DNA of 64,000 nucleotides from a virus. The stretch covers positions 1 through 64,000 of IMG/VR virus record IMGVR_UViG_3300045131_002907. One strand, given 5' to 3'. Position numbers and translations under genes: made by a program. Each line of letters starts with the position of its first letter. Within the stretch, counting starts at the first letter, position 1. Under the pieces are notes generated by a model. That model ran no database searches, had not been told where the DNA came from, and saw only the letters and a program-made list of their open reading frames with translations. This document shows positions 6,271 through 60,405 of the stretch, piece by piece.

Positions 6271-7305
6271 ATGGCTGATCTCTGGTTAGGCCCACTTCCT
6301 GGTAAAGGTGTCATGGGTCCAGCGGGGCCCCAGGGTCCCACGGGTCCACGTGGATCCCGGGGTCCGCAGGGCCCCCAGGGTGCATGGGGTCCACAGGGCA
6401 CCAGGGGAGTCCAGGGCGACAGGGGTCCACGTGGGGTCCCCGGAGATACGGGACCACAAGGTATTACTGGAATCCAGGGGGTCACCGGACTACCCGGGTT
6501 TGATGGCGTCACGGGACCTCGAGGCATACAGGGACCACGGGGTCCCACGGGTCCCCTGCGTCAGGGTCCACAGGGTCCCCCTGGAGACATCGGGGATGCT
6601 GGTAAAGACGGTAATCGTGGGCGCGACGGTCTCCAGGGCCCACCTGGGGACAGGGGACCGCAAGGACGCCAGGGGGCACCAGGTCCCCAGGGCCCACGGG
6701 GGCCAGATGGGGTTCCCGGACCCCAGGGTGACCAGGGCCCACGCGGGCACCAAGGTGACCCCGGCCCCAAGGGAATCAAGGGATCACCGGGGCCACGTGG
6801 GGCCACCGGGATTGGGCCGACGGGGCCCAGGGGTATCACGGGTCCGCAGGGGCCAGAGGGAAAGACCTCAACGGGTCCCCAGGGGCCGCAGGGCCCGCAA
6901 GGCAATAAGGGGCCATTGGGACCTCAGGGGCCCCAGGGGCCTCCAGGTGGACGCGGTCGCCAAGGCTTCCAAGGTGCCGACGGTGGCTTTGGGCCAGTGG
7001 GTCCCCAGGGTGACACAGGGGATACAGGGGAGCGCGGTGAACCCGGAAGAGTGATACCAGGCCCAACGGGTCCAGCGGGGGCCACTGGTCCTTGTGATCT
7101 CACGACGTGGCCAGCGCAACCTCCATGCAACCACGACCACGCCGGGGATGTCCTGTCACCCGTCCGTGTTAAAGCAGTGACCACGTTGACACCAGTTCTC
7201 GATACCACGTTGCTGCGTGCGGGGTCGCTCATAGTTGCCGGCAGGTCTGCTGGGCCTACTGTAGTCGAGACCTGCGGCGACACCAAGACTCTATTGGGGT
7301 ACTGA
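6271..7305 (+). CDS. Collagen-like fibre protein (apparent C-terminal half of a split gene)
   Basis: Almost entirely Gly-X-Y. The C-terminal C-x-H-x-H segment resembles CETHTH in the 7306 protein. Confidence 0.8.
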
Positions 7306-10300
7306 ATGGCACTGCCAATTCAAAACAACACGATTACTCGGTTGGCCACTGCGCTCCTCGCCGATGCCGAGGGCCCCGATTCCTATGTTGAAATCATGGA
7401 TGCCACGAGGCTGGATCCCCAAGGCGGAGTTGTGGCCGTGGGTACCGGCCTCGAGGGTACCCCCAGTGAAGTCATCGGGTACTCCTCGATCTCTGGCAGA
7501 TTCCTCATGGGGCTCTCACGTGGCCTCCAGGGTACCCAGGCCGTGCTCCACGCCGCCCAGGAACTCGTTGGACTCGTGATCACCGCGGGGCATGTCGCCG
7601 AGCTCCAGGTCCAATTTGGAACCACGGTTCAGCGCCTCGCGATTTCATTGAGCCGTGGTGACACCGGGTTCCGGTGGTATGACACCGACCTCAATGAACT
7701 CTACATCTGGTTCATCCATTCTTGGGTGATCGCTGCGAAGATCTACCCCAGCCCGTTTTCATCTTCGGCCCCATTCAAGGAATGGAGGTGCCCGCGGAGT
7801 TGGGTTCTCGCCCGTGAGTATTCACAGGGCGACCGCTGGATCGAGGACGCCGGAAATTTCTCTTTATGGTTGTGCACTGCGAATACACGGACGAACACCA
7901 TTGCGGACTGGACTGAGATCGGGGTGGGGGCCACGGGGCCCCAGGGTCCAAGTGGCCCCCAGGGCCCCCAGGGTATAACAGGCCCAGGTCTCCCGGGCCC
8001 ACGTGGTCCAAGTGGACCCCGGGGTCCCAGTGGCATCGCGGGTCCCCAGGGCATCCAGGGGACCCCAGGGCTACAGGGTCCCCCGGGACCCCAGGGTGAC
8101 ACCGGAGTCAGTGGTACCCCGGGGCCAACGGGGTCGATGGGTACAGTGGGTACCCCCGGTATCCAAGGTGTTCAAGGTCCCACTGGGGTAAGCCCGCCTG
8201 GCCCCACCGGAGTCGCGGGCCCCCGTGGATTCGATGGAACCAAAATACTCAATGGTGTCGGCGATCTTTCGGGGAGGCCCCCAGCGGGGAGTGTCCCCAC
8301 GGGTTATACCTATCTCGCCGTTGATGTCGCCGTGGTCTACACGCGTACGGCGAGTTCGACATGGACTTCTCAGTCCTGGGCGCCCCAGGGGCCACAGGGT
8401 CCACAGGGTATCCCGGGGACCACACCTGGTGCCATCGGGGCCACGGGCCCACAAGGATTCAGTGGTATCCAGGGAATCCCTGGTATCACAGGTGTCACCG
8501 GTGCACAGGGCCCCCAGGGGCCGCAGCAACAAGGTGTTCAGGGACCCCAAGGTGACCAGGGTCCCACTGGGGTCGCCGCTCCGGGACCCCAAGGAATCAC
8601 AGGTATAATCGGACCCCCTGGTGCCAGGGGACCCGAAGGTCTTCCTGGTGTACGTGGAATCAAGGGTGACCCCGGTATCGCCGGGCAGCCCGGGGCCCCT
8701 GGACTCGACGGACCCCAGGGTCCACGTGGCCTCCCCGGTATCGATGGTTTACGTGGTGAGCCCGGTCCCGGTGGAGTCGCCGGTGGTCTGGGTCCCAAAG
8801 GTGATGCTGGCCCCCTGGGCCCCCTGGGGCCCACTGGGGTTCAGGGACCCCCTGGAGAACCCGGTGAAACCGGGGATAAGGGGCCTCCGGGTCCCATAGG
8901 CCCCCGAGGCCCCGCGGGTCCCCCTGGACCCGCTGGTGGAAATATCAATGGTCCCATGGGACCCGCGGGTCCCCAGGGCCCCGATGGTGATCCAGGCCCA
9001 ATGGGTGGACCCGGAGGATATGGTAACCGGGGACCCCGCGGACCCCGAGGAGACCCCGGAAACATCTACCCCGGCGGGAAGGGGCCAACAGGAATAACAG
9101 GGCGACAGGGTGACCATGGACGTGACTCAGATACAGGCCCCACTGGCCCCACTGGCCCCCAAGGCCCCGCTTGTACTCCTCCTACGAATACGTGCTCGGA
9201 CTGCGAAACCCATACCCATTCTGCTTCAGATATCACGCCGACTTCATTGACAGTTAATATAGTCATTGAGGCCGAATGCACTGATGCCGGGGAAGTCGTG
9301 ACCTCAACGCTATGCGTGGGGGGTTACGAATACGCACCAGAAGAAGTCGAGCTGTGGTCCGATGGTTCCACAAGCATTGCTAGACTGTTTGTTCGCGGTG
9401 CGCCCTGTGCAGGGGGCCCCCCGGAGCCGTTGACATGCGAGTGTGATAGCACATGTGATCTGACAATCTCAGTTATTCAAATTGATACATGGGTGTGGGC
9501 GTGCACGGAATGGGTTCTGGTTCCTGAGGAGTCGGGGCGCCTGTTTTTTACCGACAACTGTTGGTATGGCGAACGTAGAGTCTGGCCCTATGTGAAGTTT
9601 ACAGGATCACTACCACCATTTCCAGGCGACATTAAAATTTGTGTGGAGTGCTGTGGCCCCGACTTCTTTAAGTGTGGGACCTGCACGGATGCCTGCAGTG
9701 TAGAGGCGATCCCAGGGCAAGACATAAGCTGTATGCAGCGCGGCGAAGTACGTATTAATCCTGGGCCTGGCACAGGTTTTGAATACAATAACTGTTATAC
9801 AACAACAATAACTCGTGTGCGAGATCGAGTAAATGTGCAGACCTTGGTAGATTGTAGTGCCAGACCGGGCCACCCGCAGTTCTATTGCGACAAGATTACG
9901 CCAGAACCCCCCACAGACGTGCCCTGGCGTTTCTGCGGGACCTTAGAAGTCACCATTCTACCTGGTCCAGACATCCCACCGTTCTATGGCACAGCATGGG
10001 TCCAGAACTACGGGCCTGGACGGGTGCAATTTAGAGTTCTTGGGTTACCCCGTCCCGAGGATAGATGCGAGGTTCTAGTGGTGGTGTACCCAGGCAATCA
10101 AGAGGGTATTTGGCCTAAGATTCTTGCGAACGCCTCAATTAATACCACGCTTTTGGTGGGGAGTGACCCAGTAACTATTGAGATCCCCTTTGAAGACTAT
10201 GTAACTAACGAGTGGGATACCATGCGCGGGGGGCCACTATCATGGGGCGCGGATGGTCACGGTGTGGTTTACGCTAGGCTACTCGGTACAGAAGGTTGGG

Positions 10301-10794
10301 ATGTTGTGCAGTTGTGGCGCCCTTTTACCGTAAAGTTGAACCCATCGCGCTGTGCAACTATACGCGGTGCTTTCATACTAGGTAATCAGCCGCCTGGAGG
10401 TGGTACACCGGCAATATATGTAAATATCCTCGACGCCGCAACTGATCAGTTGATACCGGATTTCGAGCTTACCGGGAACGGGCAGCAAAACGTCCATGCT
10501 GTGAAGGTAAGATATAATGGTATCACTTGGATCCCTGATGGGCTAGAACCCTGGTTAAATAAAGGGCCACCACCGACGGCGACTCTACGAGTTCAAGGCG
10601 AGAGAGCAAACTACCTCCATGGTCACGTCGATCCAAAAATTGTAGACGACGAGTTAGTGGAGGTCACCCAGGATCCAGGCCCGCACACTCTACCAGGTAC
10701 TTATGCAGTTCCAGATATCATGCAGTATCGTATGTATCCCAGTGGTTGGCCAGTTTATCCGATATGGGACCCGTGGGATGGTTCAGCGGGTTGA
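7306..10794 (+). CDS. Collagen-like tail fibre protein with Cys-rich C-terminal region
   Basis: N-terminal domain paralogous to the 1906 protein, two collagen blocks, HxH motif, Cys-rich C-terminus. Confidence 0.85.
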
Positions 10795-43822: not shown

Positions 43823-46298
43823 GCGAATCTCCTTGACGGCTACCCTGGATCAGCTCGGCACCCATGGTGTCGGTATGGCTGCATCTTCGGTGAGATGTCT
43901 GATGTGTCAAACCGACCTCGGCCTCGCCACCCGGGGCCCCCACTACTTGGCATGCAGCCATTGTGGGTTCGTCGGCGACGCCATCCATTACTTCGCCGGG
44001 GTCCGCAAGATGTCCATCGCGGACGCCATCTCATCCCTGGAGATCGTGGAAGCCGTAACCCCGGATACCCGGCAGGAGGTCAGCGACTACCTATTCGTCG
44101 CCGAGGAACAGGCCAGGCTTCGTAGGCTCCTCAAGGCAGGCCGCAGTTACTACTCAGATTTCCCAGGAAATATCCGACAGATCTGCGAGGATTACGGGTG
44201 CTGGTTCAGCGAACCCGCGGGGCAGGCGGGATCCAACTACCACGTCGCCATGATTGCCCAGATGCTCGAGGATCACGACATCGAGATCCCGAAGTCAGCG
44301 AAATCGGCGATGCAGACCTGGGGGAAGTACGCGGCTATCGCGATTCCCGCATACTCGGAGTGGAGGATTGTGGGGTTCTGGCTTGTCCTCCCCAAGAGGG
44401 CGAACCTCGCCGATAAAACCCTGGCGACATGGACTTACCTCAGTCTCTACCCCGGTAAGGCCATGGGGTACGCCAACCTCGTCGGTGATGATCACGATAC
44501 CTCATTCGTGGTCAGGGATCCCTCGGTGGCCTTTCGGTTCAATATGCGGCAGTGGGCCGATGGTGGCATCAAGGCCCCATTCGTGGTCGCCACGGAGACC
44601 CCCTCGTTGTTCCACCTCACGGGTACCCAGCCCGTTTTTGTTCCCAGCCTCCTCGCCGAACGCGCTGAGGTCTTCCATGGTGCCCTTGGGGTTCTAGGTG
44701 CGGGGTGTCTATGGTACTCCCCGGATGCCCGGGATGCCCACATCCTCTTTGATTTCTACGAAGGCTTTGGTCGCCCCGGGCTGACCTCCTCAGGTATCGT
44801 GAACTCCATGATCCGGGCATCGCTGCCGCCGCATGAGGCCATGGGAAGACTTCTCCTCGCCCAGGACATCAAGATGGCCCAGAAGATGGTGGCCGCGTAC
44901 TCGATACCCCTGGCGCACCGCAACCAGATCCTGACCTACTTTGAGGGCGCCGATCTCCGGGATCTCAAAGCACTCTTTGTTACCGACGATGCCCCGCGTT
45001 CCGTGGACATCGATGGTAAGATTATCACGGAACGCAGCGATGGCTGGTACCACGGCAACTCCCTGATCTCATCAGTGATCCTGGTAATCAAGGAGATCAC
45101 CACGGATCCCGTGAAGAAAACCCATGTGGCCTCGGGAACCCTGACCTTCAAAGGGAAGACCTGGAATCTTGATGCAGATTACGATGCCCTCAGGAAGAAC
45201 CCGGCGAAATGGATCGAGGACTTCATCTTGCTCAGGAGTGGCAACGACATCCCGTTTATGAAGCCGGCGTGGGCGCGTGAGCTCCTCAGAATCGCAGCCG
45301 CATTCAATGCCCCGACGAGATCCACATTGGCAGCGACCTATGGGTGGCAGCGGGATTCCGGGGTGCTCTGCATGCCCCACTTCTCCGTGCTGCCCTCTGG
45401 GGTAGTCATGACGGAATCCCGGCTCAGCGGACCCCAGATCCAGGCCCCAGTCAACCTGGGATCCCGGCAATGGGCGGCCTGGGATTACGTCGAGTTCGCC
45501 ACGATGGCAGTCGTTCTCACCGGTAACCTGATGCGGACCCGTGAGGGCCTCGGGGGCACCGGGATCGTGGTCCACAGTGCCCAGCACGTCGTCGAGAAGG
45601 TTGCTGGGGTCCTCGGGATCCACGTGGTCACCGATCCCGACGCCGGCGCCCTGGCCAGGCACGCCGAGAACCCCCTGGTGATGCCGGTGACCTGGAGTTC
45701 CCAGGAAGTCATGGAAGCCGCCTTGAAGCCCCATGGTCCCAAGAACATCTTGGTCTCCGCGGATCGCCTCCAGCACAAGCTGCTCAGGTTGCATCCGGGG
45801 TGGGCATGTCTGGATATCTACGATGTCCCCTGCGTCGAGAACCTGAACACGATATTCCTACTCCTCCCCGATCTCCTCACGAAATCGAAGTCGGGGTTTG
45901 ACACCAACCCAGTTGGATTCTACAGCAGGGTCGCCGGGGATCTCGCCAATGCCTTGCGTGCCCGGAAAGTGGATCCCGCTGCGGTGCTCCAAGCGGGCTC
46001 CGACCTCGGCAGGGTGTTTGCGACCCCAGATAACTCGGGTGGGCTTGTCCTCGCCCACCTCTGGAGCGGGGTCGACGCCGGGGGGCTCCACGTCGAAACC
46101 AAAGAAGGCGTCGTCGTCTTCAACCGCACCGAGGTTTCCAGGCTGTTTATGACCCCTGGGCTGCCCAGGCTGGAAATGGCGTTCATTGAGCGCCTCCTGA
46201 TCCGGGCCAACCTCCTGGTCAAGAATACCCCCACGGAATGGGGTATCGAGGAACGCACCCTGAATATCTATTCCTCGATATTCATTGAAACCACTTAA
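43821..46298 (+). CDS. Primase-like protein with N-terminal Zn finger, apparently degenerate
   Basis: CLMC...CSHCGFVGDAIHYFAGVRKMSIADAI resembles the DnaG zinc-binding domain. No clear TOPRIM acidic motifs. Start uncertain. Confidence 0.55.
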   Translation: MRISLTATLDQLGTHGVGMAASSVRCLMCQTDLGLATRGPHYLACSHCGFVGDAIHYFAGVRKMSIADAISSLEIVEAVTPDTRQEVSDYLFVAEEQARLRRLLKAGRSYYSDFPGNIRQICEDYGCWFSEPAGQAGSNYHVAMIAQMLEDHDIEIPKSAKSAMQTWGKYAAIAIPAYSEWRIVGFWLVLPKRANLADKTLATWTYLSLYPGKAMGYANLVGDDHDTSFVVRDPSVAFRFNMRQWADGGIKAPFVVATETPSLFHLTGTQPVFVPSLLAERAEVFHGALGVLGAGCLWYSPDARDAHILFDFYEGFGRPGLTSSGIVNSMIRASLPPHEAMGRLLLAQDIKMAQKMVAAYSIPLAHRNQILTYFEGADLRDLKALFVTDDAPRSVDIDGKIITERSDGWYHGNSLISSVILVIKEITTDPVKKTHVASGTLTFKGKTWNLDADYDALRKNPAKWIEDFILLRSGNDIPFMKPAWARELLRIAAAFNAPTRSTLAATYGWQRDSGVLCMPHFSVLPSGVVMTESRLSGPQIQAPVNLGSRQWAAWDYVEFATMAVVLTGNLMRTREGLGGTGIVVHSAQHVVEKVAGVLGIHVVTDPDAGALARHAENPLVMPVTWSSQEVMEAALKPHGPKNILVSADRLQHKLLRLHPGWACLDIYDVPCVENLNTIFLLLPDLLTKSKSGFDTNPVGFYSRVAGDLANALRARKVDPAAVLQAGSDLGRVFATPDNSGGLVLAHLWSGVDAGGLHVETKEGVVVFNRTEVSRLFMTPGLPRLEMAFIERLLIRANLLVKNTPTEWGIEERTLNIYSSIFIETT

Positions 46299-47161
46299 AT
46301 AGAGTAGTCAACGCTGGGAGCATGCGACCCTGTTAGAAGTTGTGGTGGGTTGTGTTTCATATAGGCATCCCACGCGAACTGCGGGATGCCTAAAGCAATG
46401 AATAGTTCATCTACCGTTATTTTTGAACATAGTAGGAATTTACTAAAACGGTTCCTGATCCTTGTTTCTTTTTTAATGCGATCTACGTTTACTTGGCGTA
46501 ATTCTCTTTTGACACGTGCTGCCTCTCGCCGTGCCTCCCTTGTTTCTTTTTTAATGCGATCTACGTTTACTTGGCGTAATTCTCTTTTGACACGTGCTGC
46601 CTCTCGCCGTGCCTCCCTTTTAGTATTAGCGGCTTTTTTAAGCGCATCTCTTTTAATACGTGTGGCTTCTCTTAAAGCATTACTATGATACGTGCGATGC
46701 GCTGTGCGTGGGATGAGTATGCAGTTTTCGGGGCAGTAATCAGATTTCGGATCGACGCGATGAACGTCACATTCGATGTCTGCACCTTGAGACACGACCC
46801 ACCCAAGGAAGCTAACAAGTGACTCGAACTTGTTGGATATCCCCCGTTCGCCATATCGCTTTGCATGTCTATTGCTAGGGTTGCATCGAGAACAAATCCC
46901 CTGGTATCTAGCAGTCCATACACGCCTCACTTTATCATCTGGGATTATTTGCTTGGACGTGCACCCTGCTGCGTCCTTGAGGTAATCGGATCCCAGCTTA
47001 ATCCCTGCGCATGTGGCGCAGTAGTGCACCCTACGCTTAACCAGTTTATCCTTTCGATATACCTGGGATCCGCCGCAGGAATCACATTTCCCAAAAACGT
47101 ATGTCTTGTTGCCTTGTCGGTGACTCGACCCGGTTATAGTTATTCCCGAGAAAGATAGCAT
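46295..47161 (-). CDS. HNH-type homing endonuclease
   Basis: RC...YGERGI...F..W...VHRVDPKSDYCPENC matches the YGGRGI...IDRID..G.Y...NC HNH family. SD ggag before ATG 47161. Visibly more AT-rich than its flanks. Confidence 0.75.
   Translation of the reverse strand: MLSFSGITITGSSHRQGNKTYVFGKCDSCGGSQVYRKDKLVKRRVHYCATCAGIKLGSDYLKDAAGCTSKQIIPDDKVRRVWTARYQGICSRCNPSNRHAKRYGERGISNKFESLVSFLGWVVSQGADIECDVHRVDPKSDYCPENCILIPRTAHRTYHSNALREATRIKRDALKKAANTKREARREAARVKRELRQVNVDRIKKETREARREAARVKRELRQVNVDRIKKETRIRNRFSKFLLCSKITVDELFIALGIPQFAWDAYMKHNPPQLLTGSHAPSVDYSI
46460..46619. repeat. Exact 78-nt tandem duplication within the HNH gene
   Basis: Units start at 46461 and 46539; encodes REARREAARVKRELRQVNVDRIKKET twice. 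Confidence 0.95.
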
Positions 47162-47236
47162 ATAAACTCCTGTCTGCCACGCATGGCACACCAAAGATAC
47201 ATGGTTACACTGGGGCCACAACCCCCTAGGATTAGC

Positions 47237-47306
47237 CCTCCCCCCTGGGGGGAGGTCCCCCCGGGGGGTATCTAAATAAAACCCCGTTTTGTCGTATATT
47301 ATAGTG
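47237..47306 (+). promoter_or_regulatory. C6/G6 palindromes followed by an AT-rich promoter-like tract
   Basis: cctcccccc-t-ggggggagg and ccccccgggggg, then tctaaataaaaccccgttttgtcgtatattatagt, at a divergent gene junction. Confidence 0.5.
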
Positions 47307-47357
47307 ATGGAACTAAGTAGTTCTGGCTCACCCCAGACCTGCATCTCCACCACCCAC

Positions 47358-47397
47358 CAAGGAAACCCTTGCACCTCATCGTGCAAGGGTTTCCTTG
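47358..47397. other. Perfect 17-bp hairpin
   Basis: caaggaaacccttgcac-ctcatc-gtgcaagggtttccttg. Confidence 0.9.
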
Positions 47398-50307: not shown

Positions 50308-50689
50308 TCTCCGGTCACCCCGGGCACGAAGACCTCGCAGGGATCACGGGCTTCTCAAGATCACGAAGACGCACATCAAGATTCCATGTGAACTGTTCCC
50401 CGAATACGGGGAGCGCTTCACGGTGTCAGCTGTGTTGTATAACAACTGCATCTGGTTGGTGCCCACCTCGGATGGTCTCCTGGTGACCCGGATGAGCCCC
50501 CTTGCCTACCGGATCTATAGGAAGCCCAGTCATCCCAACATATTCAAGATCGGGGTCTACACCCCGTTCCGGGATGACATCGTTGAGGGGATCAAAGCGG
50601 TCAGGATCCCAGGTGCTGTCGCCGCGGGGGCCCGAGAAATCGACAACATGGCGCATTGGCGTCAGCGGACATCATCTGGTAACCACTGA
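50246..50689 (+). CDS. Hypothetical protein
   Basis: SD aggagg at 50234-39 before ATG 50246. Confidence 0.55.
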   Translation: MLVKSSKLSELLPPGAFNFSDLRSPRARRPRRDHGLLKITKTHIKIPCELFPEYGERFTVSAVLYNNCIWLVPTSDGLLVTRMSPLAYRIYRKPSHPNIFKIGVYTPFRDDIVEGIKAVRIPGAVAAGAREIDNMAHWRQRTSSGNH

Positions 50690-52665
50690 CGATCCGTGGA
50701 TTCCACGGTGCCATCAGAGGCCTCAATAGCCCGCATCTTATGCCAGGCCTGCGCGGTATCCGGCCACTTCCGGCAGTGATGGTATAGTGCCATGACTGCA
50801 AAGTTCACGGCATGTACGAAGTCGTCATGCCGCTTGGATATTCTGTGTACTAAGCGTAAGGCTTGACCTCTTGGGTTATCACGGACCTCCTCGAAGATTG
50901 ACAGGAAGTCGTTCATCAAGGGGACCATGGGGCCTTCATAGGCCGCGAACTTAACCTTACCACACTTGATGAGTTCGCAGAGCATGAGAAGGCTTCGGGC
51001 CTTATCGAGGGCCCAGTAATCACGGACCCCGGTTTCACCCGCAGGTGTATAGCTGACCACGTTTTTATTGGGGCATGACATATAAGTGAATGGGCACAGC
51101 ATGTCAGTAGGCCAACCCATGTGGGTCAGAATACTCTCGTGAACATTACCGGCACCACCGTAGTCATGCGCGATATAGTTGACCCCCGCGGTCACCGCGG
51201 CTTCCTTGACCATGGAGGCCTCAGCGAAGTGATCGGCGGCGTAGGGCACCGCGTATCCCCAGGACACCGTCACTGTACCATCAGCGGTGATCCCGGCGAG
51301 GGCCAGCGCAGTGTTCGAGATGAACTCATCGGCGTCTGTGGTTTTCTCACGACCCTTGCCACCCCAGTCGACACCGAGGATGCTGGCCACCCAATTATTC
51401 TTCACGTACTGCGAGGGGCGAATGTATTTCGCGGTCCCCGCCGCGGTGAGATCCTTGATGGTCATCAGCTTCTGACCGGTATCGTAGCTCTCCCCGAGGA
51501 CTTCGTTATAGAAGATGTACTTGGGTTTGTTGCGCAGGGTATCCATGATCTTATCCCACGACAACGGCGAGTTGTAGTGCATGGGAAAGACGACCTGGGG
51601 TTCATGGTATCCCGCGAAGGTCAGCCGGCGGGATGGGAATCTATGGATGAAGTAGCCGAGCCTGGAGTCCAGGGCACCCCCACACTTCGCACACATCAGG
51701 GTGCGCACGGAGCCATCCCGGCGTCTCGTGTTATCCCCGATCATGTTGAGGAGGTCACCTTCGACGCTGCACACGTTTTCGTGCTTGCAGCCTGTTTCCT
51801 GACACGGGATGTGCCAGATGCCTTGAGATGACTGTTCCCAGTATATTTCTATTGGATTATCAAATGTTTTCGGGGTCCCCGCGTACCTCTCGAGCTTGTA
51901 CGGCGAGGCGTCCAGACAGCTCTGAATAACAGGGAGAACGTCGATGTCGAAGTCCTGACATTCATCGATCGCGATTTCGTCGGCACTGGTGCCTCTTATA
52001 CGGTCAGCTGAGTTCGCGGCATAGTTGTAGAACAGGTTACTGCCGTTGCCAAGAGTGCGCTGGAGAACCTGCTGATCTCCTCGATTATCCATGAGGCGGG
52101 ACTTCACAATGGATTCTTGCAGGAAAGGTCGAATATAGTTATTCGAGAACTTTCGGATCTGCTCGAAAAGAGGAGTCACCGAGAGCAGGTTGTAATAGGG
52201 GTGGCACGCCGCTCTGATGATGCTCCCCGCAGCCTTGTTGGTCGACTTCGAGAGCTGACGACCCGCCTTATCGATTTGCCGGCGGGGAATGTTGTGCGTG
52301 GCATACTCGTGCTCGAACAGGAAATGGGTGTTCGCGATCGAGTATGGTTTTCCCTTCAATTTGAAGATCAGAGGCAGGGCAGCCGATAAGGGCATATTAG
52401 GATTGGCTTGCCTTGCCTTGCTAAGACGTCCGAGGGCATCGTTGTAACTCGGGAGGGCGGCGTCGCCCCCGAGACTCACGTTTTCCTTGGATGCAAGTTC
52501 TACCATGGTTGACTCATGGTAAATCGGCGTGGCAGAGATGCCAGCGCCCTCACCTCCTGAGGCCGAGAGGCCACAAGGAAACTGTATGGCTCCCTTCATC
52601 AAACTGCTACTGCTCGTTGCAGTCGCATATATTTTCCTCAAGTTAGTGCTTTTAGTGCTTGCCAT
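50662..52665 (-). CDS. terL: Terminase large subunit
   Basis: Walker A-like GRQLSKST, RIRG..ADEIAIDECQD (Walker B), GTP coupling motif, FYNEVLG, nuclease GVDWGG and HDDFVHA. Start may be 52506. Confidence 0.9.
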   Translation of the reverse strand: MASTKSTNLRKIYATATSSSSLMKGAIQFPCGLSASGGEGAGISATPIYHESTMVELASKENVSLGGDAALPSYNDALGRLSKARQANPNMPLSAALPLIFKLKGKPYSIANTHFLFEHEYATHNIPRRQIDKAGRQLSKSTNKAAGSIIRAACHPYYNLLSVTPLFEQIRKFSNNYIRPFLQESIVKSRLMDNRGDQQVLQRTLGNGSNLFYNYAANSADRIRGTSADEIAIDECQDFDIDVLPVIQSCLDASPYKLERYAGTPKTFDNPIEIYWEQSSQGIWHIPCQETGCKHENVCSVEGDLLNMIGDNTRRRDGSVRTLMCAKCGGALDSRLGYFIHRFPSRRLTFAGYHEPQVVFPMHYNSPLSWDKIMDTLRNKPKYIFYNEVLGESYDTGQKLMTIKDLTAAGTAKYIRPSQYVKNNWVASILGVDWGGKGREKTTDADEFISNTALALAGITADGTVTVSWGYAVPYAADHFAEASMVKEAAVTAGVNYIAHDYGGAGNVHESILTHMGWPTDMLCPFTYMSCPNKNVVSYTPAGETGVRDYWALDKARSLLMLCELIKCGKVKFAAYEGPMVPLMNDFLSIFEEVRDNPRGQALRLVHRISKRHDDFVHAVNFAVMALYHHCRKWPDTAQAWHKMRAIEASDGTVESTDRQWLPDDVR

Positions 52666-52984
52666 ATGTATGATCGTATGGGCGCTAAGAGGCTTTCGTG
52701 GTCATCCCTGGAAGGGTTAGGACCCCCAGTCGACTCGCTGATGCCGTACTCGGCGAGTCGATCCCAGATTTTATCAACAACCCAGGGAGTACACCTCCCT
52801 GGCCCAAAAGTCTCAACGCTGTAGACTGTTTCCATGTACTTATCACAGAGTCCCCGTGCGGTACTCCACCGCGCCTATCCCACCCCGAGATATCGGTCCC
52901 CGCTCTCAGATCCCACTGTGGCGTCCACGGATCGCATCCGGACCCCAAACCTGGTCTGTCGCCTGGACCCCAAAGGACGACTTG

Positions 52985-53896
52985 ATGAAACCGCAACCAC
53001 CAACCTGGGGGGCACGCAAGCACCAAAAGGGTGAGCGGAGCTCCGAGAAGAACAACCCCGAGAATGACTGTCTGCCCCTAGAGGATCCTCTAGGGGTTTA
53101 TTATGACCTCGCCGTGGACATGATTGGTAACCACCACGAAAACCTCACCCGTGAGTTCCTACGCGGGTTCTGCGCTATGCAGCAAGCCTTCAATGCCCGT
53201 GCCTTCGGCGACGTCACCAAAAAGCATTGTAGAGGCATCCATATCCTCCATGACGCCGACACCGAGGGCTATTGTCGCCACCCCCTGTGTCCGTCGTGCT
53301 GGCTCAAAAGGGAACTCGTGATCCGGGATGTCCTCACCAAGACCCCGGCGCCTCCGCGGTGGATCTACCGGGAGTCCAGCACGTTCCCATTGCGCGAGTT
53401 CGACTCCAGGGATGCCGATAAGGTCTGGGAGGCATTTCGGGCTCGCTATGTCCGCAGCCTCACCCCTTTGGTGTGGTCACTGGAGATCACCCAATTGGAG
53501 GAGGGCTACTCGGCTCCTGTGACCTACGATGAACTCACCAACCTTGGGTTCAGGTACCGTGGTATCTTCGCGGATTCCGGAGGGGGTAGATACAAGTCGA
53601 TCCCAGTGATGTGTTCGGAGTCCGGGGTAGTCCCGACTCCAATCGGGAACTACGGCTTCATCTTTGATACCCCCTGTAAGGACTCCGAGATGCTAACCGA
53701 GTGGAGGGAGCACGTGATGTCCCCAGTGAAAGTGATCAGTAATTTTATGCACCACGCCGCACTCCCCGAGATTCCTAAAAGGGTGCACATGGGAAGGCAG
53801 TTCTACGCGCTCTCCATGAAGGAGAAGAAACCCCAAAGTGTTGAAATCTTAGACACCGGAGGGGTAGAATCTCCTGAAGTTCCAGTTGTTCACTAA
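52985..53896 (+). CDS. Zn-finger protein resembling a degenerate rolling-circle Rep (pC194/Rep_1-like)
   Basis: HC...CRHPLCPSC, VWEAFR and WSLEIT; the expected HUH position reads FRYRG. Confidence 0.45.
   Translation: MKPQPPTWGARKHQKGERSSEKNNPENDCLPLEDPLGVYYDLAVDMIGNHHENLTREFLRGFCAMQQAFNARAFGDVTKKHCRGIHILHDADTEGYCRHPLCPSCWLKRELVIRDVLTKTPAPPRWIYRESSTFPLREFDSRDADKVWEAFRARYVRSLTPLVWSLEITQLEEGYSAPVTYDELTNLGFRYRGIFADSGGGRYKSIPVMCSESGVVPTPIGNYGFIFDTPCKDSEMLTEWREHVMSPVKVISNFMHHAALPEIPKRVHMGRQFYALSMKEKKPQSVEILDTGGVESPEVPVVH
53841..53870 (+). promoter_or_regulatory. Sigma70-like promoter TTGAAA-N18-TAGAAT
   Basis: At the 3' end of the Rep-like gene, pointing into the large hairpin. Confidence 0.45.
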
Positions 53897-53920
53897 GGTG
53901 AACAAAATGTTCTCAAGACT

Positions 53921-54163
53921 TGAAAAGCATCACATACGGTCCTTTAATATCTTTAACCGCCAGATAGCCAACAGCCGGACATCCGCGCCCGCTGCGCGTG
54001 GCGCCACCACCGGTGGAGGCCGTGATGTCGAAATCCTCGACGTGTGAATCTCACTGATCTGGGTCGTCACCATCGCCACCTCCGGTGGTGTCGGCGCCAC
54101 GGTTGGTGGGCTGTTGGCTGTTGGAAGTTAGATATATTAAAGGACCATATGTGATGCTTTTCA
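53921..54163. repeat. ~243-nt rod-like imperfect inverted repeat
   Basis: Outer arms 29/30 complementary (53921-50 vs 54134-63). Nested arms: agccaacagcc/ggctgttggct, gtggcgcc/ggcgccac, accaccgg/ccggtggt. Confidence 0.92.
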
Positions 54164-54195
54164 GTTTAACCATCTACTAGACAAGGAGTTCCATA

Positions 54196-55326
54196 ATGAA
54201 GCCTTCTACCATCGCCTTTATTGGGGATTTACACCTCTCGTTCACGATCTGGGAGTCTCGAAGAGAGATCACAGGTGACAGTGATCTCGGACTTTCCCAG
54301 ATCCTGGAGGTATGCAAGTCTCGGGATATCCGGGACCTCATCCTACCCGGTGATATCTTTGATTCTCCGGATCCTCATCCCGCCTTGGTCTACAAGTTCA
54401 GGGACTTCGTGGAGCGTGCTCGGGAGCAGGGGACATCAGTCTCCTTCATCCAGGGTAACCATGACAAGCGGGTGTTGTCCTGGGGCCAAGCGGTCTCCGG
54501 TGATGCCCACTGGATCGGGGATGGTCAGCTCAGGGAGATCGCGGGTACCGCAGTACGCGCCTTCGATTACACCTCACGAGATGATCTCGCCGCCAAGCTC
54601 GCCGAGGTGGGTTCCAATGGGGTCCCCAGCGACGTCATCGTCATGCACCAGGCGTGTAAGCAGTACCTGGATATCGAGGGTTGCTGGAGCCTGGATCTCG
54701 ACTGGGTCCCCGAGTTAGCCGGCGACATCGTGATGTCCGATATTCATGAGCCCTGGGGATATCCCCGATACGTGGCTCGATGGGCGGGCTACACCGGTGC
54801 GATGACCACGAGATCCATCAATGAGGCCAGGCATCCCAAGTCCGTGTTGCTTCGGCATCCCGGCGGTGTCTTTGAACGCGTCCCGATACTGTCTCGTGCG
54901 ATCACCCAGTTCGCGGTGACCGCGGATAACATCGAAGGCTTGATGCCCTCGATTCGGGATTTCATTGCCTACGCGGGTTCCATTCAGGACCTCACCAGGT
55001 TGCCTGGTGTCATCTACGTCACCTACGACAACTCAATTGTCTCCGCACCGGAGATCATCGCGGACACCATCAAGGCCGCGAAGTCAGATGTCTTCGTGGT
55101 CCCCAAGTTCACGGGATCCCAGAAGGCCGCGATCACCTTTGATCCCAGTGTGGCCGCCGAAGGCGTCCCCGAGATCACCACCTTCGTGTCTGGATTCTTG
55201 AAGCCCGAAGATGACCCCCGCGCCCATGGTCTCGCCCTCGATCTCCTCGATGGCACCCAAGGCAAAGAAGGCATCGTCGCCAAGATTGAATCCGCACGCC
55301 AACGCTTCCTCCAGGAGGTCCAATGA
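54196..55326 (+). CDS. Mre11/SbcD (gp47-like) metallophosphoesterase nuclease
   Basis: GDLH, GDIFD, GNHD, MHQ and SDIH motifs; SD aaggag. Confidence 0.85.
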   Translation: MKPSTIAFIGDLHLSFTIWESRREITGDSDLGLSQILEVCKSRDIRDLILPGDIFDSPDPHPALVYKFRDFVERAREQGTSVSFIQGNHDKRVLSWGQAVSGDAHWIGDGQLREIAGTAVRAFDYTSRDDLAAKLAEVGSNGVPSDVIVMHQACKQYLDIEGCWSLDLDWVPELAGDIVMSDIHEPWGYPRYVARWAGYTGAMTTRSINEARHPKSVLLRHPGGVFERVPILSRAITQFAVTADNIEGLMPSIRDFIAYAGSIQDLTRLPGVIYVTYDNSIVSAPEIIADTIKAAKSDVFVVPKFTGSQKAAITFDPSVAAEGVPEITTFVSGFLKPEDDPRAHGLALDLLDGTQGKEGIVAKIESARQRFLQEVQ

Positions 55327-55640
55327 AATCTGCATTCACCCTTATCGAGATCTTGATCGTAATCGCGGTTATCGCTGTTCTTGGTGTGATGCTTATCCCA
55401 GTGATACACGGGGCGGTGTCATCAAAACCAAAATCTAAAGTGGCCCTGGTTCCCGAGGAGTCCACTCGTTTCGTAGAAACACAGGTGACCCCATCAGGCT
55501 TCGGTTACCCCAACCCGGTATATCTCCTCCGGGATACCAAGACAGGGCAGGAATGGTTGCGAGCCCATCAATACGGGTTCGCGCAGGTCTCCCCCAGTGC
55601 ATCCACCCCCTTACGCTGTGAAGCCGAGGTCCCCCGATGA
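55323..55640 (+). CDS. Prepilin-type N-terminal cleavage/methylation domain protein
   Basis: MKSA-FTLIEILIVIAVIAVLGVMLIP is a class III signal peptide with Glu at +5. Confidence 0.85.
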   Translation: MKSAFTLIEILIVIAVIAVLGVMLIPVIHGAVSSKPKSKVALVPEESTRFVETQVTPSGFGYPNPVYLLRDTKTGQEWLRAHQYGFAQVSPSASTPLRCEAEVPR

Positions 55641-56470
55641 ACGATGACTCACGTTTCGCTTACTTCAGACTCCCCAATGGGACCACGTTCCATCTCCCCC
55701 GGAGTGTCCTCGATCTCGCCGCAGCCCCGGCGCGGCTGCAAGTCGACTCCCTGATCACCCTCGAAGCCCTAGCCGCCGCGATCCTAGGCGTCCCCGACGT
55801 CGATTTCCTGAAGTGGGGGGATTCCCTCTCCGAGGCCTCAAACGAGCTAGAATCGAAAATGGCGAGGTCCCAGGCCCCTGTTTTGGGGGAGTCCTATGGT
55901 GACTCCGATATCGACCGGATCATGGAGGCCACTTCCGAAATCGAGGGCTACTTCTTTTTGAGTATCAATTACGACCCCGTTGGGGGTGTCTGGGATGTCA
56001 CGGTAACCCATGGCACCATGGATTGTGGTAGCAGCACCTATGGGGGTTGCGAAACTGAACTCACCGCTGCGGTGAACTCCACGCTGCGTGCCATCGCGGG
56101 TGCGCTGGAATCCGGGAAACTCAAGAAGCGCCCACCTGCCCCGCCATTCCAGAAACCGCTTGAGATCTGGGGGTACCCCTTGGGTTCCCGGGTCTGGATT
56201 GACACCGTGCATGGCTGGCGTCTGGGTAAGCTCGATGTTGAACCCGCGTGTTCCTATAAGGAGGAGCCCTGCAGTGCCGTGGTTCGCATGGATCACGGTG
56301 AGCGCAGTTCGGATTGTATTTCTGTGTTCCCACGTTCGCCACGTGATATCAAACCCGCGCTGTGCCGGGCGTGTGGGGGCCCCCAGTTCTGGACACCATC
56401 GGGGTATTCCTGCAAGAACGGCGATGGCGGCGAGATCTCCTTGCCCCATGACCAAACCAGTATCCAATAA
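55637..56470 (+). CDS. Hypothetical protein
   Basis: ATGA coupling; C-terminal CRAC motif. Confidence 0.65.
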   Translation: MNDDSRFAYFRLPNGTTFHLPRSVLDLAAAPARLQVDSLITLEALAAAILGVPDVDFLKWGDSLSEASNELESKMARSQAPVLGESYGDSDIDRIMEATSEIEGYFFLSINYDPVGGVWDVTVTHGTMDCGSSTYGGCETELTAAVNSTLRAIAGALESGKLKKRPPAPPFQKPLEIWGYPLGSRVWIDTVHGWRLGKLDVEPACSYKEEPCSAVVRMDHGERSSDCISVFPRSPRDIKPALCRACGGPQFWTPSGYSCKNGDGGEISLPHDQTSIQ

Positions 56471-58029: not shown

Positions 58030-58065
58030 GCATTCCAACCAATGCCCTTCGTTAAAGGAGGTTCC

Positions 58066-58407
58066 ATGAAAACACGTTTTCCTAATGGTACACCTTGTTA
58101 CCTCATTGCACTGAGGCGCTCCAAGCGCGGTAAACCCTCGGGGCATGCGGTCAGGAGACTGCGCCGTGAGGTCTTCTCCGAGTTCTTTGAATACGCCAAA
58201 GAATCTGTTGTTTTCGGCCACAGTGTTGGTGCCATGGTTTTCCGACTTCGTGATGGTGTCGACCCCCGGGAAGCCCTGCGGTACTGGCCGGATCACGGGG
58301 TCTGCCCGGCCTGCTTGCACCGGGCCATCACAGCGGGGACATGCTGTTTGTGTGGTGCCGACCCCGACAAGGTGGAATCACCATACAAACCAAAGGCGGA
58401 GACATGA
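58066..58407 (+). CDS. Zn-ribbon protein, tandem paralog A
   Basis: SD aaggagg; DHGVCPAC...CCLCG. Confidence 0.7.
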   Translation: MKTRFPNGTPCYLIALRRSKRGKPSGHAVRRLRREVFSEFFEYAKESVVFGHSVGAMVFRLRDGVDPREALRYWPDHGVCPACLHRAITAGTCCLCGADPDKVESPYKPKAET

Positions 58408-58706
58408 GAGTGCCACTTTGCTACGCCGAGGCCCTGAAGCACTCGCGTACAGGGAAGCCGTCTTCTGCGGTTCTCAAGAAGCTACGCGCCGCTGCTCTCG
58501 CCGAGTTCTTTGTCTTCGACCCCATCAAGTGGGTCTACCAGCTTCGCCCCGGGGTGAAGCCCAAGGAGGCCCTCAAACGTGTCAGTGATCACGGGGTCTG
58601 CCCGCACTGCCATCTCCGCTCACTCACCACGGGGTGTTGCCTGCAATGCGGGAAACGCCCCGATGAAGTCAAGAAGCCCTACAGTGGGCCCCAGGAGATC
58701 CCATGA
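58404..58706 (+). CDS. Zn-ribbon protein, tandem paralog B
   Basis: ATGA coupling; DHGVCPHC...CCLQCG. Confidence 0.7.
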   Translation: MRVPLCYAEALKHSRTGKPSSAVLKKLRAAALAEFFVFDPIKWVYQLRPGVKPKEALKRVSDHGVCPHCHLRSLTTGCCLQCGKRPDEVKKPYSGPQEIP

Positions 58707-59173
58707 AACACTGTACACCGGCGCCATCGTTTTGCTGTGTTATCACCGAGGGTCAGCGGATTCTTCGCATGAGACCCCCGCGGCGCTCGCTCCCCAAAGC
58801 CCAGATGGATGTCGCCCTCTGGAAGAAAGCCCACCCCGATTATGTCGAACGCCGAGATGGCAGCCTACCCCGTGTTGTCGCCACGCTCACGGGGTTTATC
58901 TGGGATGTCGAGGTCCCAGACCGATTCAAGTGGACCCGCTTCGTGAAACCAACGCCAGCGGTGGTCGCCCGATATCTCTCGACATATACTCAGACCCCAC
59001 AGGCGGGTCCGTTTGGGCGTTCCCAGTACCGTCTCAAGTTGAAGCGAGTTGACTGGAGGGGTTACCTGACATGTAACAACTGGCTCATCAAGGCCTGGGT
59101 GGAGTGGCCCCTGGCAGTCGATGTCAATCTGGTGACCCCGCGAGAAATCGAGTTCATCTGTCCCGTTCTCTAA
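58703..59173 (+). CDS. Hypothetical protein, probably truncated at the C-terminus by the tnpB element
   Basis: The last codons (V L stop) come from the element end; an in-frame continuation exists at 60565-60615. Confidence 0.65.
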   Translation: MKHCTPAPSFCCVITEGQRILRMRPPRRSLPKAQMDVALWKKAHPDYVERRDGSLPRVVATLTGFIWDVEVPDRFKWTRFVKPTPAVVARYLSTYTQTPQAGPFGRSQYRLKLKRVDWRGYLTCNNWLIKAWVEWPLAVDVNLVTPREIEFICPVL

Positions 59174-59320
59174 TTAGTTACCAGAATCTCACAATTCTGG
59201 GATTTCATTAGTTCCTGGTTCATCGACGGCAGTTTCGTATTTGTCCTGCGACGAATACCAGAGCTCCCAGTCTCCCCAGGCGTTGATTCCCGCACACGTG
59301 CGGTATTGAATAGATTTAAG
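59145..59320 (-). ncRNA. Predicted omegaRNA scaffold plus flanking guide
   Basis: Stems at the tnpB 3' end (ccgcac/gtgcgg, cctgg/ccagg, gtattcgtc/gacaaatac, ccagaat/attctgg), matching known TnpB locus architecture. Boundaries approximate. Confidence 0.6.
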
Positions 59321-60405
59321 CCCTGAGAACGAATGTTCTCAGCGGCGTTTTCATCCCTGTCATGGACTCTTCCACAATGTGGGCAAGCCCACTCGCGAAC
59401 TGACAGTGGTAGAGATTCCATTAGAAATCCACAACCACTGCAGGTCTTGGATGATGGAAAGAACCTATCGACTTCTTGGATGGCATCTGCCTTGTACCCA
59501 AGTTGTCTCACGATCTCACCCCAGCCGACATCGCTGATGGCCCTGGCGAGACAGTGGTTCTTCATCATCCCACTGACATTTAAGTCTTCAACACAGATCA
59601 CACTGAACCGTTTGGTTATCGCGGTTGTGATTTCGTGCTGCCAGCCCTTTCGGGTCTGGGCTACTTTCCAATGCAGCCTCGATAACTTATTGGCTGCTTT
59701 CTTACGGTTCTGAGAGCCCTTGACCTTCCGGGATAAACGACGACCCAGACGTTTAAGCCTGGTGATCGCTGATCTCAGTGGTCTAGGGGCCTCGAACTTC
59801 TCTCCAGTAGACAGTGTAATCGCTGAAGTTAATCCAAGATCGATACCAACACAGGATTCCGGGTTGGGGGTCTTTTCGATATCAGGGAGTTCGACCTGAA
59901 CGGAGATCCACCATCTCTGACCCTGGAAGGAGAGGCGTGTCGAGATTGGTCTGCCCTCGAACCTGAGTTCTTCCCGCATCTTGATCCAACCTATTTTTGG
60001 GAGCTTTATTTTATTACCATCAAAACTGAACTTATCGGGGCCATCTTCCAGCCGAGCAGACGCCTTGGAACGATGCCTGGACTTAAAGTCAGGCATTGAC
60101 ATCTTGGGGCCCTTACGTTTACCTTTAATGGAATCGAAGAAATTTTGATAGGCAATTCCAAGATTCTTAATGGCTTGCTGGACCACTGACTTCGGGACCG
60201 CATACATCCATGGAAACTCTACATCCTTAATGGAGTTTAATTCCTTTCGGAGTTCAGCTTCATTGGGCTTCTCCCCTGTATCGAAGCGTTCGCGCCATCT
60301 ATTCAGGGCCCAATTGTAGGCAAACCGAGCAGTGCCCACGCAACGCCGGAAGAACTCTTCCTGGGCATCCGTTGGGTCTAGCTGGATGACGTGGGATCGA
60401 ATCAC
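59170..60405 (-). CDS. tnpB: RNA-guided endonuclease TnpB
   Basis: GTARFAYNWAL, RuvC motifs GIDLG, VEDL and DRDENAA, and Zn finger CSGC...CPHC. Confidence 0.95.
   Translation of the reverse strand: MIRSHVIQLDPTDAQEEFFRRCVGTARFAYNWALNRWRERFDTGEKPNEAELRKELNSIKDVEFPWMYAVPKSVVQQAIKNLGIAYQNFFDSIKGKRKGPKMSMPDFKSRHRSKASARLEDGPDKFSFDGNKIKLPKIGWIKMREELRFEGRPISTRLSFQGQRWWISVQVELPDIEKTPNPESCVGIDLGLTSAITLSTGEKFEAPRPLRSAITRLKRLGRRLSRKVKGSQNRKKAANKLSRLHWKVAQTRKGWQHEITTAITKRFSVICVEDLNVSGMMKNHCLARAISDVGWGEIVRQLGYKADAIQEVDRFFPSSKTCSGCGFLMESLPLSVREWACPHCGRVHDRDENAAENIRSQGLNLFNTARVRESTPGETGSSGIRRRTNTKLPSMNQELMKSQNCEILVTN

Follow-up and report, generated by a model that had tools for sequence, protein, structure and literature searches.

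The stretch of DNA analysed here, referred to as the window, comprises 64,000 nucleotides (nt) and corresponds to positions 1 to 64,000 of the IMG/VR virus record IMGVR_UViG_3300045131_002907, which has a total length of 75.4 kb and is judged to be 35% complete. Between genes for a large terminase and for an Mre11/SbcD-like nuclease, it harbours a gene designated here as gene X (52985–53896, plus strand), the product of which appears from its sequence to be a new, catalytically dead variant of the rolling-circle initiator kind. Starting 24 nt past the stop codon of gene X, a 243-nt inverted repeat (53921–54163) folds into a hairpin that is real, under selection and unique in the genome. The reading that we favour, with less than even confidence, is that X is a non-catalytic binding protein heading a recombination module, and that the hairpin is a clade-specific element of the sense strand, probably an RNA, through which the transcript running into the nuclease gene is processed or attenuated. 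A previous description of this region, made by inspection of the letters only (the sequence-only reading), had placed between terminase and Mre11 an inverted repeat of about 243 nt, at a distance of 24 nt from the stop codon, and all of these features are present.

The source of the DNA is an uncultured jumbo phage, since it is closely related to two phage contigs, one of 216 kb (G001, which is complete and contains locus L003) and one of 171 kb (G002, containing locus L004). These two loci provide the nearest comparisons throughout.

Gene X and the rolling-circle initiators

Gene X extends from the ATG at 52985 to the TAA stop codon at 53894–53896 and encodes a protein of 303 residues, as is likewise the case for three close homologues, which start with MKP or MKK. 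The protein reads ...KKHC-RGIHILHDADTEGY-CRHPLCPSCW, equivalent to HC-x14-C-x4-C-x2-C, with WSLEIT at residues 164–169 and FRYRG at residues 189–193; the open reading frame (ORF) and these motifs were found just as the sequence-only reading had described them. An exhaustive HMMER search over 1.84 billion representatives yielded eight proteins, all of 252–303 residues, and the addition of loci found on contigs of viral and metagenome origin brought the family alignment (A4) to 14 sequences. The only residues invariant in this alignment are Cys82, Cys97, Cys102, Pro103, Cys105 and Trp106, all of which belong to a Cys4 zinc knuckle (codons 53228–53302, plus strand), and Gly193 and Pro247; this set would describe a zinc site and structural positions, and no active site. 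The family is very rare. X had no significant match in searches of Pfam, PHROGs, NCBIfam, PADLOC and PDB sequences, neither X nor the hairpin was matched in 50,697 isolated-phage records, no relative with the knuckle pattern was found in 185,579 prokaryote genomes, and the family member P0004 was sought in viral contigs and not found.

The knuckle links X to the Rep_1 initiators (PF01446) of plasmids such as pC194 and pUB110. As a search with pC194 RepA returned near-identical copies only, the Rep_1 alignment used here (A5) was built from PLSDB plasmids and consists of 11 proteins, namely pC194 RepA and ten diverse plasmid proteins. Cys37, Cys60, Cys65 and Cys68 (pC194 RepA numbering) are invariant in A5 and align with the four knuckle cysteines of X, so that both groups share, in their N-terminal part, the Rep_1-type pattern C-x(14–22)-C-x4-C-P-x-C followed by Trp or Arg. 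Rep_1 is also the sole Pfam family to recur in the X family, where it matches three of the 14 members, at model positions 5–33 only and with E-values of 0.08–0.65 against a cut-off of 33 bits. X itself had no match to PF01446 at E ≤ 0.1, nor at E ≤ 10 in a six-frame search. When residues 75–280 were compared with the ESM Atlas, 27 of the 30 nearest named clusters carried Rep_1, REP_ORF2-G2P or Zn_Tnp_IS91, and a permissive hhalign comparison placed the X strand WIYRES on FLTLT and WSLEIT on RKLEIT. X probably descends from Rep_1.

The AlphaFold model obtained from A4 has a mean predicted local distance difference test score (pLDDT) of 69 and a predicted template-modelling score (pTM) of 0.72, and consists of helices, the knuckle and then a strand–helix–strand–strand–strand–strand–helix succession. 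Prediction from the lone X sequence reached a pLDDT of 31, and the usable model came from the 14-sequence alignment only. The ferredoxin-like domain delimited by the model and by structure searches spans residues 123–254 (codons 53351–53746, plus strand), with predicted strands at residues 125–131, 159–170 (including WSLEIT), 187–197 (FRYRGIF), 216–220 and 224–231, and predicted helices at residues 142–152 and 233–243 (TEWRE). Foldseek, which the sequence-only reading had proposed as a check together with AlphaFold, returned no match for the model in the PDB, and a VIA structure search was dominated by ribosomal protein S6.

X departs from the initiators in the catalytic residues. In A5, His155 and His157, as well as Tyr214 and Lys217, are invariant. 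The 14 sequences of the X family, in contrast, contain no conserved His, singly or as a pair, and no conserved Tyr column. The central strand of X reads FRYRGIF, with Gly193 invariant and Phe195 nearly so across the family, and the helix that follows the sheet reads TEWREHV and leads into the invariant Pro247. The erosion of the catalytic centre that had been claimed from the window is therefore borne out by the family alignment, which shows the catalytic residues of the HUH type to have been lost from the sequence of X. Devoid of both the histidine pair and the nucleophilic tyrosine, X is predicted to be unable to nick DNA as HUH enzymes do and would clearly not be a nicking enzyme of that kind.

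Some observations weigh against a Rep_1 origin of X. An hhalign comparison of the X profile with the 11 Rep_1 proteins gave a non-significant E-value of 0.086, with 19 confident columns, and the homology of X to Rep_1 is statistically unestablished. The model was built on just 14 sequences and has a mean pLDDT of only 69; when its fold is set against the HUH-type fold, ribosomal protein S6 and ACT domains match as well as Reps do, and ferredoxin-like folds are common. The resemblance to Rep_1 that had been noticed at the outset thus stands as regards the Cys4 knuckle, the recurring Rep_1 matches and the ESM-Atlas neighbours, and falls short as regards profile alignment and fold. The same two shortcomings would suit an explanation by two unrelated, ordinary features: a generic zinc-ribbon regulator, with a Rep_1 likeness due to convergence, standing beside an oversized terminator or insulator. 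This is considered unlikely, as the Cys4 spacing, the order of structural elements and the language-model neighbours agree on one family.

The hairpin between gene X and the nuclease gene

No other local inverted repeat in the window comes close to this one in size, and it is the sole structure of such dimensions there. Its arms are imperfect throughout, with 88% complementarity over the outer 42 nt, 80% over a middle stretch of 20 nt and 74–77% over an inner stretch of about 31 nt, and enclose an irregular apex of about 43 nt. The outer left arm (53921–53962) contains an A/T-rich segment and is 74% identical to that of L004; the outer right arm (54122–54163) ends in GCTTTTCA, which is followed by GTTTAAC. 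Between them lies a part conserved in sequence (53963–54121), in which the imperfect arms 53966–53985/54100–54119 and 53997–54027/54071–54101 frame an apex (54028–54070) with small local stems. As RNA, the repeat is predicted to form a rod-shaped structure of −149.2 kcal/mol, compared with −89.7 ± 5.4 kcal/mol for shuffled sequences (z = −11.1; none of 200 shuffles was as good); the opposite strand gave z = −12.8, and folding with DNA parameters gave −78.7 kcal/mol (z = −11.9). The fold also contains a small 8-bp hairpin over the stop codon of gene X (TTGTTCAC-TAAG-GTGAACAA; 53886–53905, plus strand), which is identical in L003 and altered in L004. The ribosome-binding site of the nuclease gene (AAGGAG, 54183–54188, plus strand) is not part of the giant hairpin and remains unpaired in the predicted structure.

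Selection on the structure was assessed by comparing the window with L003 and L004, in which the X proteins are 95 and 69% identical to that of the window, respectively, and the hairpin occupies the same junction. Despite 49 differences from the window within the repeat, the L004 copy folds at −143.5 kcal/mol; upon introduction of 49 random changes, the window repeat drops to −88.7 ± 9.2 kcal/mol and none of 400 mutants reaches the L004 value. Pairing is kept in the outer arms at an identity of 69–74%, several single changes resulting in G–U pairs and four double changes being compensatory (53930/54154, 53941/54143, 53945/54139 and 53946/54138). Identity to L004 reaches 87% over the inner 159 nt, compared with 74% for the X coding sequence, and the noncoding gap as a whole is better conserved than the coding sequence of X in both relatives (98 versus 94% for L003; 83 versus 74% for L004). 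The hairpin is a separate clade-specific cis element in which selection keeps both the pairing of the rod and the inner and apical sequence. The possibility that the repeat is itself a coding sequence was considered and rejected: frames are open across it on both strands, but they shift between the phages and the crossing frames change non-synonymously.

The element is single-copy in the complete 216-kb genome and is uncatalogued. Among 2.9 million viral contigs, a 20-mer taken from its conserved core retrieved only the two known relatives and three chance matches inside an unrelated gene, scans for tRNA and tmRNA found none, and the motifs of the outer arms and sub-palindromes have no further copies in the window. 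The element could belong to a new family of structured RNAs or, at the DNA level, be a replication or recombination site. At its base, the hairpin reads GCAUCAC.../...GUGAUGC followed by UUUUCAGUUU, which resembles a terminator, yet the stem spans 243 nt. This likeness, together with GAAAAGC...GCTTTTC flanks and T-rich tails reminiscent of a bidirectional terminator, is what an oversized terminator unrelated to X would predict, but a terminator requires neither 243 nt nor an interior conserved at 87%, and a consensus terminator scan made no call at the site.

The distribution of G–U pairs bears on the strand and the molecule in which the structure forms. In L004 the sense strand contains nine G–U pairs and folds at −143.5 kcal/mol, while the antisense strand contains one and folds at −122.9 kcal/mol, a gap of 20.6 kcal/mol, and this bias points to a single-stranded form of the sense strand. 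In the window the sense and antisense strands have seven and four G–U pairs and nearly equal energies. The genes flanking the hairpin are all on the sense strand; since the favoured strand is the transcribed one, RNA is modestly favoured over single-stranded DNA as the form of the hairpin.

This assignment has to be set against a number of observations that do not fit it well. The strand bias is clear in one of the three genomes only, the most diverged copy, L004; in L003 the two strands have four G–U pairs each and the minus strand folds slightly better (−156.4 versus −151.4 kcal/mol). G–T is the best-tolerated mismatch in DNA, and a single-stranded DNA hairpin could therefore give rise to the same bias. 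A sigma-70-like promoter within the end of gene X (53841–53870) is conserved in neither L003 nor L004, and the covariance models of Rfam 15 gave no match at E ≤ 1 on either strand of positions 52000–56000. Known terminators and RNase III sites are far shorter than the 243 nt of the hairpin, and pairing by itself does not account for the conservation of its inner sequence.

Inheritance and possible roles of gene and hairpin

Gene X and the hairpin are inherited as part of a larger block. In comparison with L003, the block 52799–55929, which includes X, the hairpin and the Mre11-like and pilin-like genes, is 90–98% identical (94–98% for X, hairpin and Mre11), while the terminase is 79% identical. 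The order is reversed with respect to L004, to which the terminase is 88% identical, X 74% and the gap 83%. These opposite patterns show that the block was exchanged between lineages by recombination, and point to a recent event. The exchanged unit holds the Mre11-like and pilin-like genes too, and not X and the hairpin alone.

More distant X loci were covered by L005 and L006; the family members P0002 and P0004–P0010 stood outside this comparison. L005 lies in a 179-kb phage (G003) that is 96% complete, with a terminase 50% identical to that of the window, an X protein about 20% identical (38% over the knuckle segment aligned by tblastn/BLASTP) and an Mre11-like protein 32% identical. Its gene order is X, an ORF of 156 codons and the Mre11-like gene. 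The 156-residue ORF (L005:6632–7102) has its own AGGAGG site and no family match, and occupies the X–Mre11 junction at which the window clade has the hairpin. There is no hairpin (z = −1.1) or inverted repeat at this locus, nor any long inverted repeat within 34 kb of X in this phage. The sole large palindrome of G003 was observed 34 kb from X, in a gap of about 770 nt between genes of unknown function; this 146-nt AT-rich element (L045:9738–9882; G003:129738–129882) is 89% self-complementary, with z of about −15 on both strands, and may be an origin or promoter region. In L006, the neighbourhood of X includes a tyrosine integrase and contains neither an Mre11-like gene nor a rod hairpin or long inverted repeat. 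Since L005 keeps the Mre11-like neighbour without the hairpin, the conserved adjacency is that of X with the nuclease gene, and not that of X with the hairpin.

This distribution bears directly on the proposal, made in the sequence-only reading, that X and the hairpin are a cognate pair, as a check of which that reading asked whether a long inverted repeat always follows X homologues. The 24-nt spacing and the co-inheritance within the clade agree with it, whereas the absence of the repeat from L005 and L006 in part refutes it, and the pairing is therefore supported only in part. In its DNA form, the proposal states that X, as a domesticated Rep, recognizes the palindrome as a cruciform or single-stranded hairpin serving as an origin, loading or packaging site. 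Much about the locus would fit: the site starts 24 nt beyond the gene, both are exchanged in one block, each genome has one copy, at the head of replication and recombination genes, and the inner part, which holds CCACCGGTGG-type sub-palindromes, is conserved beyond the needs of pairing. Moreover, the fold is stable as DNA, the layout of X is Rep_1-like and non-nicking origin binders of HUH fold are established elsewhere. On the other hand, the distant homologues are devoid of a nearby long inverted repeat, the only large palindrome of the L005 phage is remote from X, no reversal of the cumulative GC skew is seen at the site in the complete relative, neither sub-palindromes nor outer-arm motifs recur in the window as additional binding sites, and the strand bias of L004 disfavours a symmetric double-stranded or cruciform site. 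We regard this proposal as possible but doubtful, and a putative contact of any kind between X and the hairpin as hardly less uncertain. Absence from the distant loci would also be expected if gene and hairpin were unrelated features.

Palindromes of such length are avoided in bacterial genomes, as they are cut by SbcCD. When a phage retains one through compensatory evolution, as here beside its own SbcD-like gene, it must put it to some use. One such use would be as a programmed substrate: the palindrome would fold on one template strand during replication and be cut by the phage Mre11–Rad50 (SbcCD-like) complex, seeding recombination-dependent replication or the processing of concatemers, with X perhaps aiding recognition. 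The position directly upstream of the Mre11/SbcD-like gene, a Rad50/SbcC-like frame 11 kb downstream in the record (at 66.6 kb) and a strand bias compatible with a hairpin on one template strand are in keeping with this scheme, but arms that are just 74–88% complementary around an irregular centre disfavour extrusion, an adjoining nuclease gene is no evidence of being its substrate, and L005 maintains the X–Mre11 pair without the palindrome; the scheme thus seems improbable. A long shot of similar rank is a cassette of three parts that would move together between phages, in which a Rep without its own nuclease centre would bind the genome-unique palindrome and hand it to Mre11–Rad50, generating a programmed break or origin for recombination-dependent replication.

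It is very improbable that the hairpin is a selfish insertion, either an element resembling a miniature inverted-repeat transposable element or the remnant of a mobile element between two genes. Mobile genes do occur nearby (TnpB at 59170–60405 and HNH at 46295–47386) and L005 has a different insert at the same junction, but the hairpin is present once in 216 kb, has no match outside the clade in the viral contigs and none in isolated phages, is under strong purifying and compensatory selection, and is flanked by no visible target-site duplication.

In the explanation that we prefer, X would bind nucleic acid through its Rep_1-type Cys4 zinc knuckle and a ferredoxin-like domain whose layout follows that of rolling-circle initiators. 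Its gene would open a rightward operon for replication and recombination, with the gene for the Mre11/SbcD-like nuclease as its conserved neighbour. The hairpin would act in single-stranded form on the sense strand, most likely as RNA within the X-to-mre11 transcript, where it may serve as a site of RNase III type, act as a stop in the manner of a terminator or stabilize the X message at its 3′ end; its processing or attenuation would set the amount of nuclease message. X, hairpin and nuclease gene are inherited and swapped between phages as a single block. Protein and hairpin are both small, well defined and amenable to bench testing, and are offered as a lead rather than a result.

Genomic surroundings and known systems

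The large terminase gene (50662–52665, minus strand; PHROG 675, E = 2.6e-40; Pfam GpA_ATPase) is divergent from gene X and is given for context only; its product is just 22–29% identical to those of isolated large myophages. A 65-codon ORF (52638–52835, minus strand) overlaps the terminase start by 28 nt and could be a small terminase-associated gene, leaving a divergent intergenic region of about 150 nt before gene X. On the other side, the Mre11/SbcD-like metallophosphoesterase gene (54196–55326, plus strand) matches Pfam Metallophos over the cut-off (E = 7.2e-8) and the SbcD-like PHROG 100/1649, and the calcineurin-like phosphoesterase motifs DxH, GDxxD and GNH[DE] are intact in its translation as GDLH, GDIFD and GNHD. 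Its potential partner, a Rad50/SbcC-like AAA_23 domain at G000:C1:66629–67081, lies beyond the window within an open frame of 829 codons, about 11 kb downstream, so that the two are non-adjacent. In the complete 216-kb relative, nearly every gene is on a single strand.

Further features of the window were observed in passing. A small protein encoded at 55323–55640 has a prepilin-type leader (FTLIEILIV...), of a style common in Planctomycetota and Verrucomicrobiota, which hints at a host of that type. The TnpB/IS605 OrfB-type gene (59170–60405, minus strand) encodes OrfB_IS605, Cas12f1-like TNB and helix-turn-helix domains, with no TnpA among the ORFs scanned, and the HNH endonuclease gene (46295–47386, minus strand; PHROG 374/3377) lies a few kilobases from the terminase. 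Two overlapping ORFs of 121 codons (58042–58407 and 58341–58706) are tandem paralogues with a C-terminal DHGVCPxC...C-x2-CG cysteine cluster, and neither matches any family. Between 6300 and 9000, GGN–CCN-rich palindromic repeats inside the long ORFs 6271–7305 and 7306–10794 suggest collagen-like Gly-X-Y repeats, perhaps of fibre proteins.

Among known systems, the hairpin shares features with RNase III processing hairpins, retroregulatory hairpins and plasmid single-strand origins (sso), which are likewise imperfect, strand-specific and located between or after genes; it is four to five times longer than the RNase III sites of T7 and lambda. The loop of the ssoA origins carries the consensus CS-6 (TAGCGT/A). 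This hexamer is absent from 53921–54163, and the strand specificity is only partly seen in the phage element.

In Escherichia coli, SbcCD cuts a 246-bp interrupted palindrome on the lagging-strand template, a reaction seen only with palindromes that exceed natural bacterial lengths (PMC3315005). The phage repeat is similar in size and in its interrupted form, and adjoins an SbcD/Mre11-like gene, but it is far less perfect, natural and under selection.

For X itself, the Rep_1 proteins are the closest comparison. Beyond the knuckle, both have the order strand, helix, xLE[IV]T strand, central strand and helix, at comparable distances from the last cysteine: about 22 residues in X versus 29 in Rep_1 for motif I, 62 versus 74 for LEIT, 87 versus 88 for the central strand and 134 versus 146 for the helix. 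The long imperfect hairpin beside gene X likewise recalls Rep_1 plasmid origins, although no nick-site motif was identified in it. In X, however, the HUH histidines are replaced (FRYRG in the window clade, variable elsewhere), a W-R-E helix stands in place of the tyrosine, conserved residues equivalent to Glu210 or Lys217 are missing, and the gene resides in a 216-kb tailed phage and not in a small replicon. The initiators of microviruses and SIRV1 ORF119 (PDB entry 2X3G), the Rep of a linear, hairpin-ended archaeal virus, score no better than S6 in comparison with the X model and, in contrast to X, keep the catalytic tyrosine.

A conceptual counterpart is found in eukaryotic DNA viruses. The origin-binding domains of SV40 large T antigen and papillomavirus E1 have the HUH fold and bind origins without nicking them. 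No sequence or structure match between these proteins and X was obtained, and the likeness would be one of principle, a Rep-type fold from which catalysis has been lost and binding kept. If X is a descendant of Rep_1 that has retained binding only, it would be the counterpart of these domains among the viruses of bacteria, and would show that large tailed phages recruit parts from small replicons.

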